A stretch of 64,000 bases of DNA from a virus (IMGVR_UViG_3300044818_000015:26045-90044); one strand, 5' to 3'; shown: positions 55,805-59,270, counted from the stretch's first letter. Notes: a model not told the origin generated them from the sequence alone. Made by a program: numbers and translations.

Positions 55805-56068
55805 TCACGCGGCGGACGGGCGCGCCATCCGGCCCAGGAGGTCCTCGGCCTTCATCCGGTCCACATGGTAGTGGGGCAGGACGCATTTCGGGTGGGTCGC
55901 CCATTCGCCGACCGTGATGCCGTTCCACAGGCATCCCCGTGGGTGGCGGCCACATTCGGGGTCGCAGTTCCCCCCGCAGTCCCCGCAGTCAACCGGCGCC
56001 AGGACTATCGGAGCCCCACGCGGTTTGTCTTCCTGCCAGTCGTCGCTGTCCCGGTAATCGCGCTGCAT
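55805..56068 (-). CDS. Cys-rich hypothetical protein
   Basis: CGDCGGNC..EC..H..GC; overlaps the 3' end of the upstream gene. Confidence 0.55.
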   Translation of the reverse strand: MQRDYRDSDDWQEDKPRGAPIVLAPVDCGDCGGNCDPECGRHPRGCLWNGITVGEWATHPKCVLPHYHVDRMKAEDLLGRMARPSAA

Positions 56069-56492
56069 ATTGCTGTTGTCTTCGGGCCGTTCTAAAGCGG
56101 GGCATTGGCCGCAGGACGATGCTCTCCGCGATCATGCTCATCTGGCGGTTGTACTCCACTTGCAGCGGACGGGCGCGCGCCACGTTGCCCTTCAGGATGC
56201 GCAGGCATTCCAGGTTGATGAAGTGCGGTGTGAGTAGCTGGTTTCCCTTATACTGGCCGGCGAGATCCGCTATCGGATTGAACAGCCCGCCCGTGCCCGG
56301 CTTGACCAGCGCCGGCGCGATCGCTACTGCCGCCGCGGCGCCGCCCAGCACGCCGAAGAAAATCCGGCGGCTCATTCCCTTGCGTGCGCAGGTCTCGGCG
56401 TCGTGTCCCTCGTCCATCGAGCGCTCGCAATGCGGGCAAAGGATCTCGGTAGAGGTTTGAGTTTTCCCAAACAGACGTGTGAGGAAACTCAT
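55989..56492 (-). CDS. Zn finger + Tat-like segment + coat-protein N-terminal fragment
   Basis: CPHC..H..C; SRRIFFGVLGGAAAAVAIAPA; NQLLTPHFINLECLRILKGNV...IVLRPMPRF aligns to coat residues 2-56; ATGA coupling. Confidence 0.65.
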   Translation of the reverse strand: MSFLTRLFGKTQTSTEILCPHCERSMDEGHDAETCARKGMSRRIFFGVLGGAAAAVAIAPALVKPGTGGLFNPIADLAGQYKGNQLLTPHFINLECLRILKGNVARARPLQVEYNRQMSMIAESIVLRPMPRFRTARRQQQYAARLPGQRRLAGRQTAWGSDSPGAG

Positions 56493-56797
56493 TCCCCGTT
56501 CCTCGCCGGCGTTGGCTTGTGGACGCCGCTGGTACACGGACTCAGGCAGCCACACTTAGACTTGCGGCACCACGTCTGGCACTTGCTGCTCGGATCTTGC
56601 GGCAACGGCCCGTGGTCGCCGTACGTGGGGCATTCCTTCGCGCGGCTGCACTCGCACTTGTGCTCATTCTTGAAGAAGTTGTTGCAGCGTAACGGTTGAC
56701 CAGGGCGCGGGGTGGAGTCCTCGCCGGGAGGCGTCTGCTCCTGCAGCGCGATGGCGGTTCCGATCAACAGGATGGTGGCGAGCAGGAAGCGGATCAT
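56489..56797 (-). CDS. secreted Cys-rich protein
   Basis: MIRFLLATILLIGTAIALQ; many Cys. Confidence 0.7.
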   Translation of the reverse strand: MIRFLLATILLIGTAIALQEQTPPGEDSTPRPGQPLRCNNFFKNEHKCECSRAKECPTYGDHGPLPQDPSSKCQTWCRKSKCGCLSPCTSGVHKPTPARNGE

Positions 56798-56964
56798 GGG
56801 CGAAATACCCTAAACCTTGCCGGTGGGCGCAAGGTGATGGTGTCGCCGATCTTCTTTTGCGACGACGGGACGTAGATGGGACGTCCAAACTGGTCGTACA
56901 GGGTGACCATGGGCGGCCCGAACGCCCGTTCCAGGCTGGCCAGACTTTCAAGCCGGAAACTCAT
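56794..56964 (-). CDS. 56-aa protein with coat-protein fragment
   Basis: KIGDTITLRPPARF vs coat KIGDTLSLRDPVRF; ATGA coupling at both ends. Confidence 0.65.
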   Translation of the reverse strand: MSFRLESLASLERAFGPPMVTLYDQFGRPIYVPSSQKKIGDTITLRPPARFRVFRP

Positions 56965-57416
56965 TCCTCGATCACCGCAAAAGCGCTCTGTTCCTCGTTG
57001 AACATGACGTACAGCACCCCGTTGAGCGTGACTGAGAATTCCCCGCCCGGCGAAGACGGCCGCCGTGGAGACACCACGCGATCGCCGACCTTGGTCAGCA
57101 TTGGATGGCGGCCTGCGTTCCACTCCCGGGCCTGTTCGTAGGGCACCGCGGCAAACGGTCCGCACTCGCAGACATAGGAATCCATGGCAACACTGAAGCA
57201 CCGCTTCTTATGGCAGACGCGGCACTTCAGCGATTCAAACGGCGCATGCCGGTCTCCCAGCCCCACCGCGACCACCGTACCCATGAAGCAATCGCTCGAA
57301 TCTCCCGCCTTATCGCCCGGTTGCAGCACGCCCTGCGGGAGTACCACTCCGTTGCTTTGGGTCTGCAGCGGATCGGGCAGCACCAGGATCAGATCGTTGA
57401 GAGGCTTGAAGTTCAT
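56961..57416 (-). CDS. groES: GroES/Cpn10-like co-chaperonin with Cys-rich insertion
   Basis: FKPLNDLILV, NGVVLP, GTVVAVG.G, KVGDRVV, YVMFNEE; CRVC...CEC insert. Confidence 0.8.
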   Translation of the reverse strand: MNFKPLNDLILVLPDPLQTQSNGVVLPQGVLQPGDKAGDSSDCFMGTVVAVGLGDRHAPFESLKCRVCHKKRCFSVAMDSYVCECGPFAAVPYEQAREWNAGRHPMLTKVGDRVVSPRRPSSPGGEFSVTLNGVLYVMFNEEQSAFAVIEE

Positions 57417-57418
57417 GA

Positions 57419-57871
57419 TTAAATCCTTGCAAGGCAATCGGCGCGGACTGACCAGGTGTCGTTTACGATGTCGTACCACCGGAGCACTCGCACGGTCGGC
57501 AGAAAACCCTCCAAATGATAACTGCGAGCGAAATCGACGCTTTTCGGCAGCGCCAGTGCGCGAAACGCTACCGGACGGATCCCGGCCTCTTGCTTTACGT
57601 TGCTAGTGAGGGATACCACCGCCGGCTGGATATACTGGGCAAAAAACCGCCGCTCGACCAATTGCCGATCATGGCCACAGGCCCGTTCGATCGCCGCAAA
57701 GGCGTTGCCCTCTATCTGAAGGTTGACCTTGAACTGGCGGTCAGCCGGAACGTGAAGCATCTTCGGGATCGAGATCAGCTTACGGCCCGGCCGCCAGAGC
57801 AACCGCTCCGGATCGACGGCGGATACTGTACAGATAGACAGTATCCGCGCGAAGAGGTTCCGCCGTGTCAT
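57419..57871 (-). CDS. Tat-like leader + two coat-protein fragments
   Basis: MTRRNLF; RFFAQYIQPAVVSL ~ coat RIGERYLESASVAL; LALPKSVDFA...VRVLRWYDIVNDTWSVRAD ~ coat LVLPQAVEMA...IRSIAQYDIVNDLFAYRCD. Confidence 0.7.
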   Translation of the reverse strand: MTRRNLFARILSICTVSAVDPERLLWRPGRKLISIPKMLHVPADRQFKVNLQIEGNAFAAIERACGHDRQLVERRFFAQYIQPAVVSLTSNVKQEAGIRPVAFRALALPKSVDFARSYHLEGFLPTVRVLRWYDIVNDTWSVRADCLARI

Positions 57872-58489
57872 TTAGACCTTGGCGTACTTGTATCCGAAAG
57901 CGTCCCCCGCTTCCGTCGAGTACTCGCCGGTCTTGTCGTTCCGAACCAGGTAGTAGCCGGGACACACAGCAATGCCTTCGAGGTCGCCGCGGTCGGGATC
58001 GCTCTGCGCGTCCGTTTTCGCGCTACTGGTGGGCGCACTCGACTCCTGGGCCGTAGACGCAGCAGCCTTGGCATCTTCAATTGCCTCCAATTCCGTGGCG
58101 GAGCGGCTGTAGCCCTCTGCCGCCGCCATCTCCGCTTCCGCCTGATTCTGCGCAATCACGTTGGGCGCATTCACCTTGACGAACGTTTGCGGGTACTCGG
58201 ACGGAACTGGGGGAGGTGGAGGGGCAACCAGCTTACCGGAAACGGGATCGACCGTATGTCCCGCCAACGCCGGGTCTGGGGGAGGCTCCGGGGGAGGAAC
58301 CCAGCCATGGTCGCTCATGAGGGCGCCGCAAGTCTTGCAGGGCCTGGAGCCATCCACGTCATCCCGGTGGTAGGCTTTCACGATGCGGCCGTCGCCGTTC
58401 GCGAGTAGGGGCTTATCCCCTGGCATGTCGCCGAGGCGGCGCCACAGTGCGGCGGTATAGGTGTCTGCGATTCGTCGGTACTGAGCCAT
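57872..58489 (-). CDS. hypothetical protein
   Basis: CKTCG..M.DHGW and VCPGYYLV...GEY motifs separated by a Pro-rich insert; AAGGAG SD. Confidence 0.7.
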   Translation of the reverse strand: MAQYRRIADTYTAALWRRLGDMPGDKPLLANGDGRIVKAYHRDDVDGSRPCKTCGALMSDHGWVPPPEPPPDPALAGHTVDPVSGKLVAPPPPPVPSEYPQTFVKVNAPNVIAQNQAEAEMAAAEGYSRSATELEAIEDAKAAASTAQESSAPTSSAKTDAQSDPDRGDLEGIAVCPGYYLVRNDKTGEYSTEAGDAFGYKYAKV

Positions 58490-58560
58490 TGGGCTGATTC
58501 TCCTTGGTTGAATGGTGTCACATCTACTGCGCGGCGGACAGCGGCGGGGCTACCGCGCAC

Positions 58561-58716
58561 CTAGCCCTGTGCCATCGAAGACAATGAGCACAGCTTGGAC
58601 GGATCCGTCCCCGCGCCCATGCCGGGATACATTCGCGGCGTTTTCGTGCGCGGTTTCTTTCCCGCCGGCGCGGGGGTCATGGGCAGCTTGAGCTGCGGGG
58701 CGGCAACGTGTTTCAT
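58561..58716 (-). CDS. small basic hypothetical protein
   Basis: MKHVAAPQLK start, GGAGG upstream. Confidence 0.5.
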   Translation of the reverse strand: MKHVAAPQLKLPMTPAPAGKKPRTKTPRMYPGMGAGTDPSKLCSLSSMAQG

Positions 58717-58718
58717 TG

Positions 58719-59270
58719 TTAGAGTTTTCCTCCGTGGGTGATCGCGGAATTGCAGTCCATTCTTGAGTCTCTGATCTTGCGAATCGCTACGGTGCGGTCC
58801 GGACCAGGTGGGACGTCGGCCACGATGATTTTCACCGCGTCGGCCAGTGCCCGGCGGACGCGGGATCCGGCTTCGACCTGTGCGGGCGTCCACTTGTGAT
58901 ACTCGAAGGCGTCGTCGATGGCGGCCTCGACTTCGGGCGTCAGTTCGGTGGCGCGGGTGAAATCGATCCGGATGGGGGCGGCGCGTTGTACTTCGGGCGC
59001 CTTTTCGATCATGAGCGGCTCTTGCGCGAGCGGATCGCAGTGGACTTCCGGCTCGTTGGCGGCTGCTTCTTTGGCGGCGCGGGCGTCCATCCAGTTCTTC
59101 AGGACGATCACCGCCGGCCGTAGATAGAGATCCCAGAGCGTCTCGGGCGAGAATTCCTGAAAGTCTTTCAGTGAGATCGACATCTCGACGTGAGACTGGG
59201 ACTCCGGGTCGGTAGGATCCGGGTGAAAGGCAAGGACTAGGAGGCCGGATGCGGTGACTGCTTCAAGCAT
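58719..59270 (-). CDS. Acb2/Tad1-like hairpin domain with N-terminal coat-like segment
   Basis: IDDAFEYH...Q....VR.....AVK.I...VP.GPDRTVAIRKIRDSRMDCNSAI resembles the nucleotide-sponge hairpin family; LYLRPAVIVLKN ~ coat RYLESASVALAN. Confidence 0.6.
   Translation of the reverse strand: MLEAVTASGLLVLAFHPDPTDPESQSHVEMSISLKDFQEFSPETLWDLYLRPAVIVLKNWMDARAAKEAAANEPEVHCDPLAQEPLMIEKAPEVQRAAPIRIDFTRATELTPEVEAAIDDAFEYHKWTPAQVEAGSRVRRALADAVKIIVADVPPGPDRTVAIRKIRDSRMDCNSAITHGGKL

Follow-up and report, generated by a model that had tools for sequence, protein, structure and literature searches.

The coat protein of P22-type phages (Pfam PF11651) is an HK97-fold protein built from an N-arm, an E-loop, a P-domain, an A-domain and an I-domain, with solved relatives in Sf6 gp5 (pdb 5l35 and 7sp4) and CUS-3 (pdb 8skg). 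In P22 the helix–turn–helix of the scaffolding protein binds the N-arm residues D14, E15 and E18, and R101 at the start of the spine helix (bioRxiv 10.1101/2022.12.13.520362). Accessory proteins that exploit such coat or scaffold contacts are encoded by phage satellites, among them SaPI Ccm and CpmB, PLE TcaP, and Sid; these act in the cytoplasm on the assembly of the helper phage, and are a whole fold or a scaffold. CpmB and TcaP are covered in PMC5644958 and PMC10945586. Capsid proteins are also recognized by bacterial immunity: bacterial sensors recognize the major capsid protein and other core phage structural proteins, with Avs7, Avs8 and Avs10 binding the major capsid protein (PMC13581612), and the capsid-sensing CapRel and Lit act in the cytoplasm.

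The locus described here lies in a soil phage, in a 64,000-nucleotide stretch (IMGVR_UViG_3300044818_000015:26045-90044, referred to as the window) of a complete 90-kb phage record with direct terminal repeats. It contains a tight operon of small genes, four of which carry old, diverged copies of pieces of the phage's own P22-type coat. Compared with the coat (413 aa), these proteins are short (56–183 aa), and the pieces are re-ordered and joined to foreign modules, such that they cannot form a capsomer. Compared with the satellite proteins, the genes are found in the phage's own genome beside its own terminase, portal, scaffold-position gene and coat, they hold only pieces of the coat, and two of them carry a predicted export-type (twin-arginine) leader. 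No description of the families to which these two belong was found in a search of the literature.

Arrangement of the operon

The operon occupies the region between the terminase and portal genes (Table 1). An earlier note, made from the sequence alone, had described these ORFs as tightly packed and several as ATGA-coupled, which is partly right. There are three ATGA overlaps (56961/56964, 56794/56797 and 56489/56492), one 0-nt abutment (57871/57872) and one 2-nt spacer, and Shine–Dalgarno-like sites are present. The GroES-like gene starts at 57416, not 57422. GC content by codon position is gene-like for every ORF (GC3 0.70–0.83).

Table 1. Features of the operon and of the reference genes; positions are those of the window.
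Position	Strand	Feature	Supporting results
59632..61173		Terminase gene	
58719..59270	-	183-aa ORF without a leader; residues 22-~86 copy the coat strand plus spine helix (coat ~78-137); C-terminal half (aa 111-178) matches phrog_1454, of unknown function	Sub-HMM E 0.0021; phrog_1454 E 8.3e-8; GC3 0.73
57872..58489	-	205-aa ORF with no coat similarity and no family hit	Not among the 25 best in the hhalign control; no Pfam hit at E<=0.01; good AAGGAG upstream
57761..57871	-	Leader (aa 1-37) of the 150-aa protein 57419-57871: T-R-R-N-L-F, a short hydrophobic stretch, then the conserved DPERLLWRPGRKLISIP motif	60% identical over 25 aa to the ORF L025:254-574 of relative G001 (E 1e-8)
57590..57757	-	Cargo piece 1 of 57419-57871 (aa 39-94): coat strand plus spine helix (coat HMM 66-120)	Family profile against coat profile over this region: probability 93.6%, E 2.1e-7
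57431..57568	-	Cargo piece 2 of 57419-57871 (aa 102-147): coat C-terminal P-domain strands (coat 350-397, including the YDIVND block)	Sub-HMM E 2.5e-4
56961..57416	-	GroES-like co-chaperonin gene with a Cys-rich insert; not a coat piece	Cpn10 E 0.0088 and phrog_3188 E 0.0016, both weak; homologues in 8 related loci (L001, L003, L013, L014, L015, L017, L019, L022)
56794..56964	-	56-aa ORF without a leader; residues 6-53 copy the end of the coat N-arm plus the first strand (KIGDT..LR.P.RF)	N-arm sub-HMM E 0.0029; ATGA overlaps on both sides
56489..56797	-	102-aa Cys-rich ORF with a hydrophobic N-terminus; no coat similarity	One homologue, in related locus L016 (E 7e-8)
55989..56492	-	167-aa protein of family Z: CCHC zinc knuckle (aa ~19-35), S-R-R-I-F-F-G twin-arginine leader (aa 41-~63), linker, copy of the coat N-arm plus first strand (aa 82-135 = 56088-56249); tail overlaps the next gene	Hydrophobic stretch mean KD 2.3
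53283..55637		Portal gene	
40433..41674	-	Full coat gene (413 aa, P22 type), reference for all pieces	PF11651 E 1.6e-36; phrog_283 E 5.2e-63; nearest solved structure Sf6 coat 5l35, E 3e-24

Homology of the small ORFs to the coat protein

The earlier note had reported that four of these ORFs match parts of the coat, and this observation is confirmed at all four positions. Pairwise BLASTP aligns 55989–56492 (aa 84–133) with coat 2–56 (31% of 55, E 7e-4), 56794–56964 (aa 38–51) with coat 43–56 (10 of 14 identical, E 4.5e-5) and 57419–57871 (aa 106–147) with coat 356–397 (33% of 42, E 7.5e-5), the last also aligning weakly over aa 57–98 with coat 87–121. In a six-frame tblastn of the coat against the whole window, the three best non-self hits are exactly these three ORFs. 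A coat HMM built from 9 coats was searched against 4073 stop-to-stop ORFs of the window plus related loci, and gave 57419–57871 at E 3.5e-6 (two collinear stretches, hmm 66–120 and 350–395), 58719–59270 at E 0.0078 (hmm 81–137), 55989–56555 at E 0.025 and 56794–57207 at E 0.16.

Comparison by hhalign with the coat alignment gave E values of 1.4e-5 for 57419–57871, 1.2e-5 for 55989–56492, 1.3e-4 for 58719–59270 and 2.7e-5 for 56794–56964. As a control, hhalign was run on 181 coding-like ORFs (50–400 aa) of the whole genome, a set that did not include the 56-aa ORF, which was tested alone. The four best were 57419–57871, 55989–56555, 58719–59270 and a fifth coat-piece ORF outside the window, at genome 5371–5916 (E 1.2e-6 to 1.3e-4), whereas the best of the other 177 was E 0.028. 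With sub-HMMs of the coat segments the pieces scored E 1e-6 to 0.09, against 0.44–5.6 for the best reversed-sequence decoys. The retained segments are therefore homologous to the coat. None of the small ORFs, however, reaches the Pfam gathering threshold for PF11651, which the coat passes with 126.5 bits against 24, and each holds only one or two segments of the domain set.

It is very unlikely that these ORFs are neutral relics of old coat-gene duplications, or chance similarities kept open only by GC-rich DNA. Each single pairwise match is weak (25–28 bits), word-indexed searches found only the query itself for 57419–57871 and for genome 5371–5916, and a tree of the N-arm pieces is unresolved. 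This reading is nevertheless largely refuted by the profile tests with their genome-wide and reversed-sequence controls, by the two collinear coat stretches in one frame, by the gene-like GC3 and ATGA coupling, and by the relatives described below. In addition, four more distant P22-type loci that include their coat gene show no such fragments in their ~15–22-kb stretches.

Two families with a Tat-type leader and a variable cargo

Two of the four ORFs belong to large, related families in which a near-invariant twin-arginine (Tat-type) leader is joined to a variable cargo. A phmmer search with 57419–57871 (family T) against 1.84 billion representatives gave 87 hits at E<=1e-3 including itself; of the 86 non-self relatives, 33 align over at least 120 of the 150 residues. 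A profile search with 55989–56492 (family Z) found 26 clusters including itself, and 21 of these 26 carry a coat piece at E<=0.015, with 0 reversed decoys. In family T the leader is followed by the motif DPERLLWxPGxKLISIP, and in family Z it is preceded by a zinc knuckle. Of 110 family proteins, 57 carry at least one coat or portal piece at E<=0.1 (Z=4942), against 0 reversed decoys, while 53 show no detectable head-protein piece. By piece the counts are N-arm 24, strand/helix 21, C-terminal 16, I-domain 8, A-domain 0 and portal 1. The portal piece is in family protein P0076 (E 4e-7), and a second occurs in L003:7558–7896 (E 0.028). No A-domain piece was seen in the window's ORFs or in the 110 family proteins, though the relative L003:7558–7896 has one. 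Among family-Z members, 1 of 19 gives a weak PF11651 hit at E 0.31.

Tat signal peptides combine a twin-arginine motif with a moderately hydrophobic stretch and a small-x-small site, and this arrangement is observed here. In the window, the twin-arginine motif of 57419–57871 is followed by a 13-residue window of mean KD 1.76 and that of 55989–56492 by one of mean KD 2.18. In 116 parsed leaders the residue before RR is N, T or S in 98; RRx is followed by F or L in 107 of 113 counted, then by L or F in 108 of 115 counted. A median of 15 residues, in a short Ala/Gly-rich hydrophobic stretch (median KD 2.0), separates RR from DPE, and small residues sit at -3/-1 in 100 of 116. Against the curated models TIGR01409 and PF10518 the two window proteins give no hit at E<=1, whereas 17 of 32 aligned family-T members (TIGR01409) and 2 of 19 family-Z members are hit, and the 77-aa member in L015 passes the curated TIGR01409 cut-off (17.8 against 16.7). 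Ordinary signal peptides tend to drift, but this leader is near-invariant across phages and runs on into a conserved 17-residue motif, and a zinc knuckle in front of the twin arginines is unusual for a cleavable signal. Three coat-piece ORFs of this phage (58719–59270, 56794–56964 and genome 5371–5916) have no leader, so export cannot be the whole story.

The conservation pattern of the families is that of selection. Thirty-two family-T members at 30–40% identity to the window's protein keep their length, and R128, R143 and D145, which align with coat R378, R393 and D395, are near-invariant. The cargo keeps many near-invariant residues of the coat family: L15 20/20, R51 12/12, P53 12/12, A108 21/22, R378 15/15, D384 15/15, R393 15/15 and D395 14/15, although detection by a coat HMM favours pieces that kept these residues and inflates the counts. 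The leader motif is invariant as a peptide while its synonymous sites are scrambled (41 nucleotide versions with third-position identity 0.43).

The same design is found in relatives, with 3 such ORFs in each of G001 and G002 and 1 in each of L015 and L040. Of 50 IMG/VR loci with the leader, 17 hold a P22-type coat within 10 kb, and the leader gene lies in either orientation relative to the portal. The only hint of a host is a 12-kb contig binned to a Bryobacteraceae MAG, with a portal 57% identical. A constant leader ending in a sharp conserved motif (..KLISIP) and followed by unrelated cargos in different genomes is reminiscent of polymorphic toxins and effectors, in which a constant trafficking N-terminus precedes a variable C-terminal cassette. 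Here the cargos are head-protein pieces and not toxin domains, and no immunity gene was seen.

It is also possible, though doubtful, that the leader is the working part and the cargo is filler. In this view the leader peptide would engage or jam the Tat translocon or the membrane, for example to help time lysis, and the C-terminal part would be whatever neighbouring head-gene DNA was captured by illegitimate recombination. The leader is far more conserved than the cargo, 53 of 110 proteins have no recognizable cargo source, the genes lie near head genes, and Tat substrates with exposed hydrophobic regions stall late in translocation and cause growth defects (PMC13673990). On the other hand, the ~140-aa subfamily keeps its length and near-invariant cargo residues, and in the close pair of family proteins P0008/P0009 the cargo differs at 6 of 75 positions and the leader part at 9 of 64 (counted by eye). 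The lack of A-domain pieces among the 110 proteins, when this segment (89 residues) makes up about a fifth of the coat, is not what random capture predicts, though detection power differs between segments.

Possible functions of the coat pieces

The earlier note interpreted the ORFs as decoys titrating capsid-sensing immunity, or as assembly modulators or poisons against related phages, and argued against simple decay; this interpretation is only partly supported. The ORFs are indeed not decaying relics, being intact and coupled, belonging to conserved families and keeping many of the coat family's near-invariant residues, and ‘selected mimic of coat pieces’ is a fair description. The note did not, however, weigh the leader carried by two of the four ORFs and most of their relatives, which predicts that the coat piece leaves the cytoplasm and fits poorly with titrating cytoplasmic sensors such as CapRel or Lit. 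The decoy reading, in which the fragments would occupy sensors of conserved coat or portal features without activating them, draws some support from a cargo made of the most conserved blocks of coat and portal, and from a variable cargo behind a constant leader, which looks like an arms-race product. However, a fragment that resembles the trigger could just as well set off the defence, and the decoy reading is considered improbable.

The assembly-modulator option remains possible, if unlikely. Before or instead of export, the pieces might bind scaffold or unassembled coat, either tuning or chaperoning the phage's own head assembly together with the GroES-like protein, or poisoning the assembly of co-infecting relatives. 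The commonest pieces in the families (N-arm and strand/spine helix) are those that dock the scaffold in P22, the genes sit in the head operon next to a conserved GroES-like gene, three coat-piece ORFs lack a leader, and satellites redirect assembly with coat-like or scaffold-like proteins (PMC5644958; PMC10945586). Against this, a near-invariant export-type leader would be pointless for a cytoplasmic binder, cargo order is shuffled (helix then N-arm, or C-terminal piece then N-arm), cargo includes surface I-domain hairpins and portal pieces, the genes are optional among relatives, and the pieces are not closer to the cognate coat than to related coats, giving no sign of co-evolution with a self partner.

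What the analysis shows, with high confidence, is the operon itself, the presence in four of its genes of old, diverged copies of defined coat pieces, the signature of selection in their families, and, in the families of two of them, the joining of a near-invariant Tat-type leader to a variable cargo assembled from head-protein pieces, mostly coat and occasionally portal. Export, cleavage, binding and function are inferred from sequence alone. Our preferred reading, which is tentative, is that the leader sends the protein to the Tat translocon, and so to the envelope or periplasm, where the cargo would act as a molecular mimic of head-protein surfaces. Tat tolerates small unfolded hydrophilic substrates (PMC13673990). 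A parallel of logic only, without sequence similarity, is offered by the T4 antiholin RI and small periplasmic superinfection-exclusion proteins, which carry an N-terminal signal and act in the periplasm in response to superinfecting phages (PMC8385771), although RI has no capsid-derived part. In this window the genes lie in the late head operon, which is not where prophage-expressed exclusion genes usually sit. In P22 the N-arm and the start of the spine helix dock the scaffolding protein and face the capsid interior. The mimic would bind, in competition with real capsids, whatever recognizes those surfaces. The most likely targets would be proteins released into the envelope by superinfecting related phages, which would give exclusion or sensing of superinfection. 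The layout of a constant leader with polymorphic cargo, and the moron-like placement around head modules, fit a function in phage–phage or phage–host conflict rather than an essential role in assembly.

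Genomic setting and the coat-derived ORFs

The IMG/VR virus record, of which bases 26045-90044 are considered here, is 90,044 bp long, carries 127-bp direct terminal repeats, is rated complete and has a GC content of 0.62. The head genes of the phage lie on the minus strand, and the ORFs of interest occupy the 4-kb stretch between the large terminase and the portal, two genes that are adjacent in P22. The coordinates of all features are collected in the table below.

The earlier note had described four small ORFs in this interval as matching parts of the phage's own coat protein, and all four matches were found where it had placed them. 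A six-frame search of the coat against the whole window returned three of these sites as the three best non-self hits, all on one strand within 1.5 kb. A profile was then built from nine coats (that of the window plus eight from related contigs retrieved with the portal) and searched against every stop-to-stop ORF of at least 30 aa, 4073 in all. This recovered all four ORFs (E 3.5e-6, 0.0078, 0.025 and 0.16), and no non-coat hit better than E 0.6 was found outside the terminase-portal regions. Alignment of the four ORFs to the coat alignment with hhalign gave E-values of 1.4e-5, 1.3e-4, 1.2e-5 and 2.7e-5. In a genome-wide control with 181 coding-like ORFs, three of the four (the 56-aa ORF was not in the set), together with a further coat-piece ORF of 181 aa outside the window, stood more than 200-fold clear of the next best, which had E 0.028.

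The ORFs have the GC1/GC2/GC3 pattern of the known genes of the phage, and from 58489 down to 55989 they form a chain with 0-nt, 2-nt and three ATGA junctions. The observation made in the earlier note is therefore confirmed, with the small correction that the GroES-like gene within the chain starts at 57416. A sigma-70 promoter scan found 0 sites and terminator-like sites were at the shuffle level. A look-up of sequencing runs listed two soil DNA runs, one of which may be the source sample, and no RNA data set.

Features of the phage genome and of related loci (window coordinates unless a genome or locus is named)
Feature	Coordinates	Strand	Remarks
Large terminase	59632-61173	-	phrog_2 E 7e-31
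Coat-piece ORF	58719-59270	-	Strand plus spine helix; C-terminal half (aa 111-178) matches phrog_1454 (unknown function, E 8e-8) and an ORF end in related locus L014 (E 4.7e-14), a fusion of a coat piece with an unrelated conserved phage domain
Coat-piece ORF, family T	57419-57871	-	Strand plus spine helix; C-terminal P-domain strands
GroES-like gene	56961-57416	-	Cys-rich insert; Cpn10 E 0.0088 and phrog_3188 E 0.0016, both weak; inside the coat-piece operon; homologues in 8 related loci, upstream of the portal where the portal is in reach
Coat-piece ORF, 56 aa	56794-56964	-	N-arm plus first strand
Coat-piece ORF, family Z	55989-56492	-	N-arm plus first strand
Cys-rich 87-aa ORF	55805-56068	-	CGDCGGNCDPECG.. 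block; just upstream of the portal; overlaps the last 80 nt of 55989-56492; also present in related loci L013, L014, L015 and L023
P22-type portal	53283-55637	-	PF16510 E 4e-149
Scaffold-position gene	41679-42755	-	
P22-type coat	40433-41674	-	PF11651 E 1.6e-36; phrog_283 E 5e-63
Gene directly after the coat	39406-40368	-	Sec-type signal-like N-terminus (basic, hydrophobic, ..GFA|Q)
Paralogue pair	36958-37614 and 33205-33999	- (both)	29% over 216 aa, E 1.5e-16
Single 6541-aa ORF	7323-26948	-	Giant for a 90-kb phage
Coat-piece ORF outside the window, 181 aa, no leader	genome 5371-5916 (locus L024)	+	Starts exactly at a coat N-arm and runs collinearly to the spine helix; hhalign E 1.8e-6
Weak vWA-like gene	genome 4010-4597		Next to genome 5371-5916
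Tyrosine integrase	genome 7063-8010		Near genome 5371-5916
vWA-like gene of G001	L025:759-1361		Similar to that of this phage; beside L025:1872-2528
Coat-piece ORF of G001, 218 aa, no leader	L025:1872-2528		Matches the coat profile
Three signal-bearing ORFs of G001	L001 2944-6259		Between terminase and portal
Chimeric 112-aa ORF	L003 7558-7896	-	Strand opposite to the portal; MRRRLF leader, coat A-domain piece (..AGGFDW.. block, E 0.0028), then portal piece (portal profile 331-371, E 0.028)

Identity of the coat pieces

The coat profile was split into five segments and reversed ORFs were used as decoys, the best of which had E-values from 0.44 to 5.6. The pieces mapped by these sub-profiles are listed in the table. 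Genome 5371-5916 was assigned to the strand plus spine helix but reaches only E 0.3 on the N-arm segment, so that its N-arm match rests on the hhalign alignment. Related phages have the same kind of ORFs. G002 (the contig of related locus L003) has three, one of which joins a C-terminal piece to an N-arm piece in one frame, and G001 (the contig of L001) also has three. Locus L015 has a 77-aa protein that consists of a leader plus the last ~45 residues of a coat, up to the end. Four more distant P22-type loci that include their coat gene (L034-L037) hold no fragments, and neither does L033, which has no coat gene in reach.

Pairwise BLASTP between the two leaderless long coat-piece ORFs (genome 5371-5916 and L025:1872-2528) found nothing, although both match the coat profile, and an N-arm read by eye in L025:1872-2528 was not confirmed by hhalign or hmmsearch. 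All-against-all BLASTP of 222 coding-like ORFs of the genome found no fragment pairs, and returned only the terminal repeat and the one clear paralogue pair. The low-confidence ESM Atlas model of 57419-57871 (pLDDT 0.50) had a P22-coat cluster as its first structural neighbour at TM 0.42, which is treated as a lead only.

Two large protein families share a twin-arginine leader

Five of the first nine coat-piece ORFs begin with, or contain, RR followed by a hydrophobic stretch, compared with 4 of 194 ORFs in the genome background by the same crude rule. A profile of 55989-56492 and its L003 orthologue found 26 clusters, here called family Z. All share a CCHC zinc knuckle, S-R-R-x-F-F-G and an Ala/Gly-rich stretch, after which they differ. 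Of the 26, 21 carry a coat piece at E<=0.015, with no reversed decoy. The architectures seen are N-arm alone, spine helix then N-arm, C-terminal strands alone, C-terminal then N-arm, and I-domain hairpin alone or followed by an N-arm. Over the N-terminal 26 residues, 10 of 19 family-Z members weakly match NF038384 of NCBIfam (YnfU family zinc-binding protein), the best E of 0.0011 being far below the cut-off.

Word-indexed homologue searches of 57419-57871 and of genome 5371-5916 returned only the query itself. However, a full HMMER search with 57419-57871 against 1.84 billion representatives showed that it is not an orphan, with 87 hits at E<=1e-3 including itself, here called family T. Of the 86 non-self hits, 33 align over at least 120 of the 150 residues and form a ~140-aa 'mini-coat' subfamily of leader, strand plus spine helix, and C-terminal strands. 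Two hits (P0068 and P0085) are tandem-repeat junk and were dropped. The rest share only the leader, [N/T]RRxF[L/F], about 13 hydrophobic residues and then DPERLLWxPGxKLISIP, behind which they carry other cargos: N-arm, first strand, I-domain hairpin and C-terminal strands. In P0076, a metagenome protein from this search, the leader is followed by two portal pieces (portal profile 27-73 and 314-343, E 4e-7), and the cargo is therefore not restricted to coat. A second portal piece sits behind the coat A-domain piece of L003:7558-7896, a chimera of two head proteins. The two families are linked by L040, a 5.7-kb contig, whose only gene between terminase and portal has the family-Z type RRGFFGILGG, then DPERLLWTPGQRLISIP, then an N-arm.

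Over both families, 57 of 110 proteins carry a detectable head-protein piece and 53 do not, and no reversed decoy scored. The family-T profile matches the coat profile at the spine helix with probability 93.6% and E 2.1e-7. Pfam, PHROGs and NCBIfam give no family for these proteins, and literature searches, which did not extend to supplements or subscription journals, found no description of phage genes made of coat fragments.

Conservation of cargo and leader

The 32 aligned mini-coat members are 30-40% identical to the window's protein, yet keep their length. R128, R143 and D145 are near-invariant and align with the coat invariants R378, R393 and D395. Across pieces, some near-invariant positions of the coat are kept almost always (L15 20/20, R51 12/12, P53 12/12, A108 21/22, and R378, D384 and R393 15/15 each), whereas others are dropped (N20 4/20, F24 3/20, N387 2/15), although HMM detection biases these counts upward. 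The leader motif is invariant as a peptide while its synonymous sites are scrambled, with 41 nucleotide versions and a third-position identity of 0.43 over 820 pairs. The constraint is therefore on the peptide and is not DNA homogenisation. Neutral relics of coat genes, or chance similarity, are largely excluded as an explanation. A working leader with filler cargo is an unlikely alternative on present evidence.

A maximum-likelihood tree of 36 N-arm pieces and coats (61 columns) was unresolved, with 21 of 33 inner branches open, and says nothing on single or repeated capture. When coats were ranked by similarity to each N-arm piece, the cognate coat was first (tied), second, second and third for the four pieces whose cognate coat was among those compared, a fifth piece, from L003, having no cognate coat on its fragment. 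There is thus no sign of co-evolution. The idea that the pieces are silent cassettes for coat gene conversion was rejected by inference, because identity of about 30-40% at the protein level is too low for homologous recombination.

In 116 parsed leaders the residue before RR is N, T or S in 98, RRx is followed by F or L in 107 of 113 counted and then by L or F in 108 of 115 counted, and small residues stand at -3/-1 in 100. A median of 15 residues (median KD 2.0) separates RR from DPE, which is inferred to be too short for a stable membrane anchor. The Tat-signal model TIGR01409 hits 17 of 32 family-T members and 2 of 19 family-Z members, and PF10518 hits 2 of 19. The L015 member passes the curated cut-off of TIGR01409, while the two window proteins themselves are not hit. 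The form is that of a cleavable twin-arginine signal, although export is inferred from sequence alone and the zinc knuckle ahead of the RR in family Z is odd.

Genomic context of the leader genes

A pattern scan of IMG/VR with the leader found 50 loci, of which 17 hold a P22-type coat and 18 a P22-type portal within 10 kb. The leader gene lies directly upstream of the portal on the same strand in some loci (L040, L048), and on the opposite strand or several kb away in others, which is moron-like behaviour. Of 34 distinct cargos, 5 matched a ~410-aa ORF of their own locus by BLASTP at E<=0.005, and the only reversed-cargo hit had E 0.037. The phage has a tyrosine integrase (PF00589, 32.7 bits against a cut-off of 27.1) and is therefore probably temperate. 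The only hint of a host is a 12-kb contig binned to a Bryobacteraceae MAG.

Possible roles of the proteins with head-protein pieces

The analysis establishes the homology of the pieces, their status as genes, the size of the families, the pattern of conservation and the form of the leader; export, binding and every other aspect of mechanism are inferred. In P22 the helix-turn-helix of the scaffold binds acidic N-arm residues, and R101 at the start of the spine helix also matters (bioRxiv 10.1101/2022.12.13.520362). The two commonest cargo types are thus the scaffold-docking, interior-facing parts of the coat. The proteins may act as cytoplasmic assembly modulators, a possibility that we consider somewhat less likely than the reading given below, and the presence of a phage co-chaperonin next to coat look-alikes may not be a coincidence.

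Tat accepts small unfolded hydrophilic proteins, and stalls on exposed hydrophobic ones with growth defects (PMC13673990). Our best reading, which is tentative, is that these are exported mimics of head-protein surfaces that would compete for whatever binds those surfaces, most plausibly proteins that superinfecting relatives release into the envelope. T4 RI is a loose precedent for a small signal-bearing periplasmic protein that responds to superinfection. The leaderless pieces, and the 53 of 110 proteins without a recognisable cargo, show that no single reading covers everything.

Capsid proteins are the most conserved and most watched proteins of tailed phages; several bacterial immune sensors key on them, and satellites hijack them. 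The earlier note had proposed decoys for capsid-sensing immunity or assembly modulators, and had argued against simple decay. This interpretation is supported only in part, since relics are largely excluded whereas immune decoys remain an unlikely explanation. A more far-reaching possibility, which the evidence leaves standing but which we regard as improbable, is that temperate soil phages with P22-type heads run a polymorphic 'head-mimic' export system. One conserved Tat-type leader would carry ever-changing strings of coat and portal motifs into the periplasm, where the strings would capture the internal or ejection proteins released by superinfecting relatives, either excluding them or signalling superinfection to the lysis clock. 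This would be a protein-level self-recognition system between phages, built from copies of the phage's own capsid.

The design described here, in which short, conserved pieces of coat and portal are copied and placed behind one near-invariant export-type leader, is widespread. The window is a good test bed, as one operon holds four different coat pieces, with and without leader, plus a zinc-knuckle variant, next to the GroES-like gene. The leader-plus-cargo layout could also be useful as a natural model of how new small proteins arise from pieces of old ones. The design points to an unrecognised layer of phage biology, possibly at the cell envelope, in which the phage uses look-alikes of its own head.
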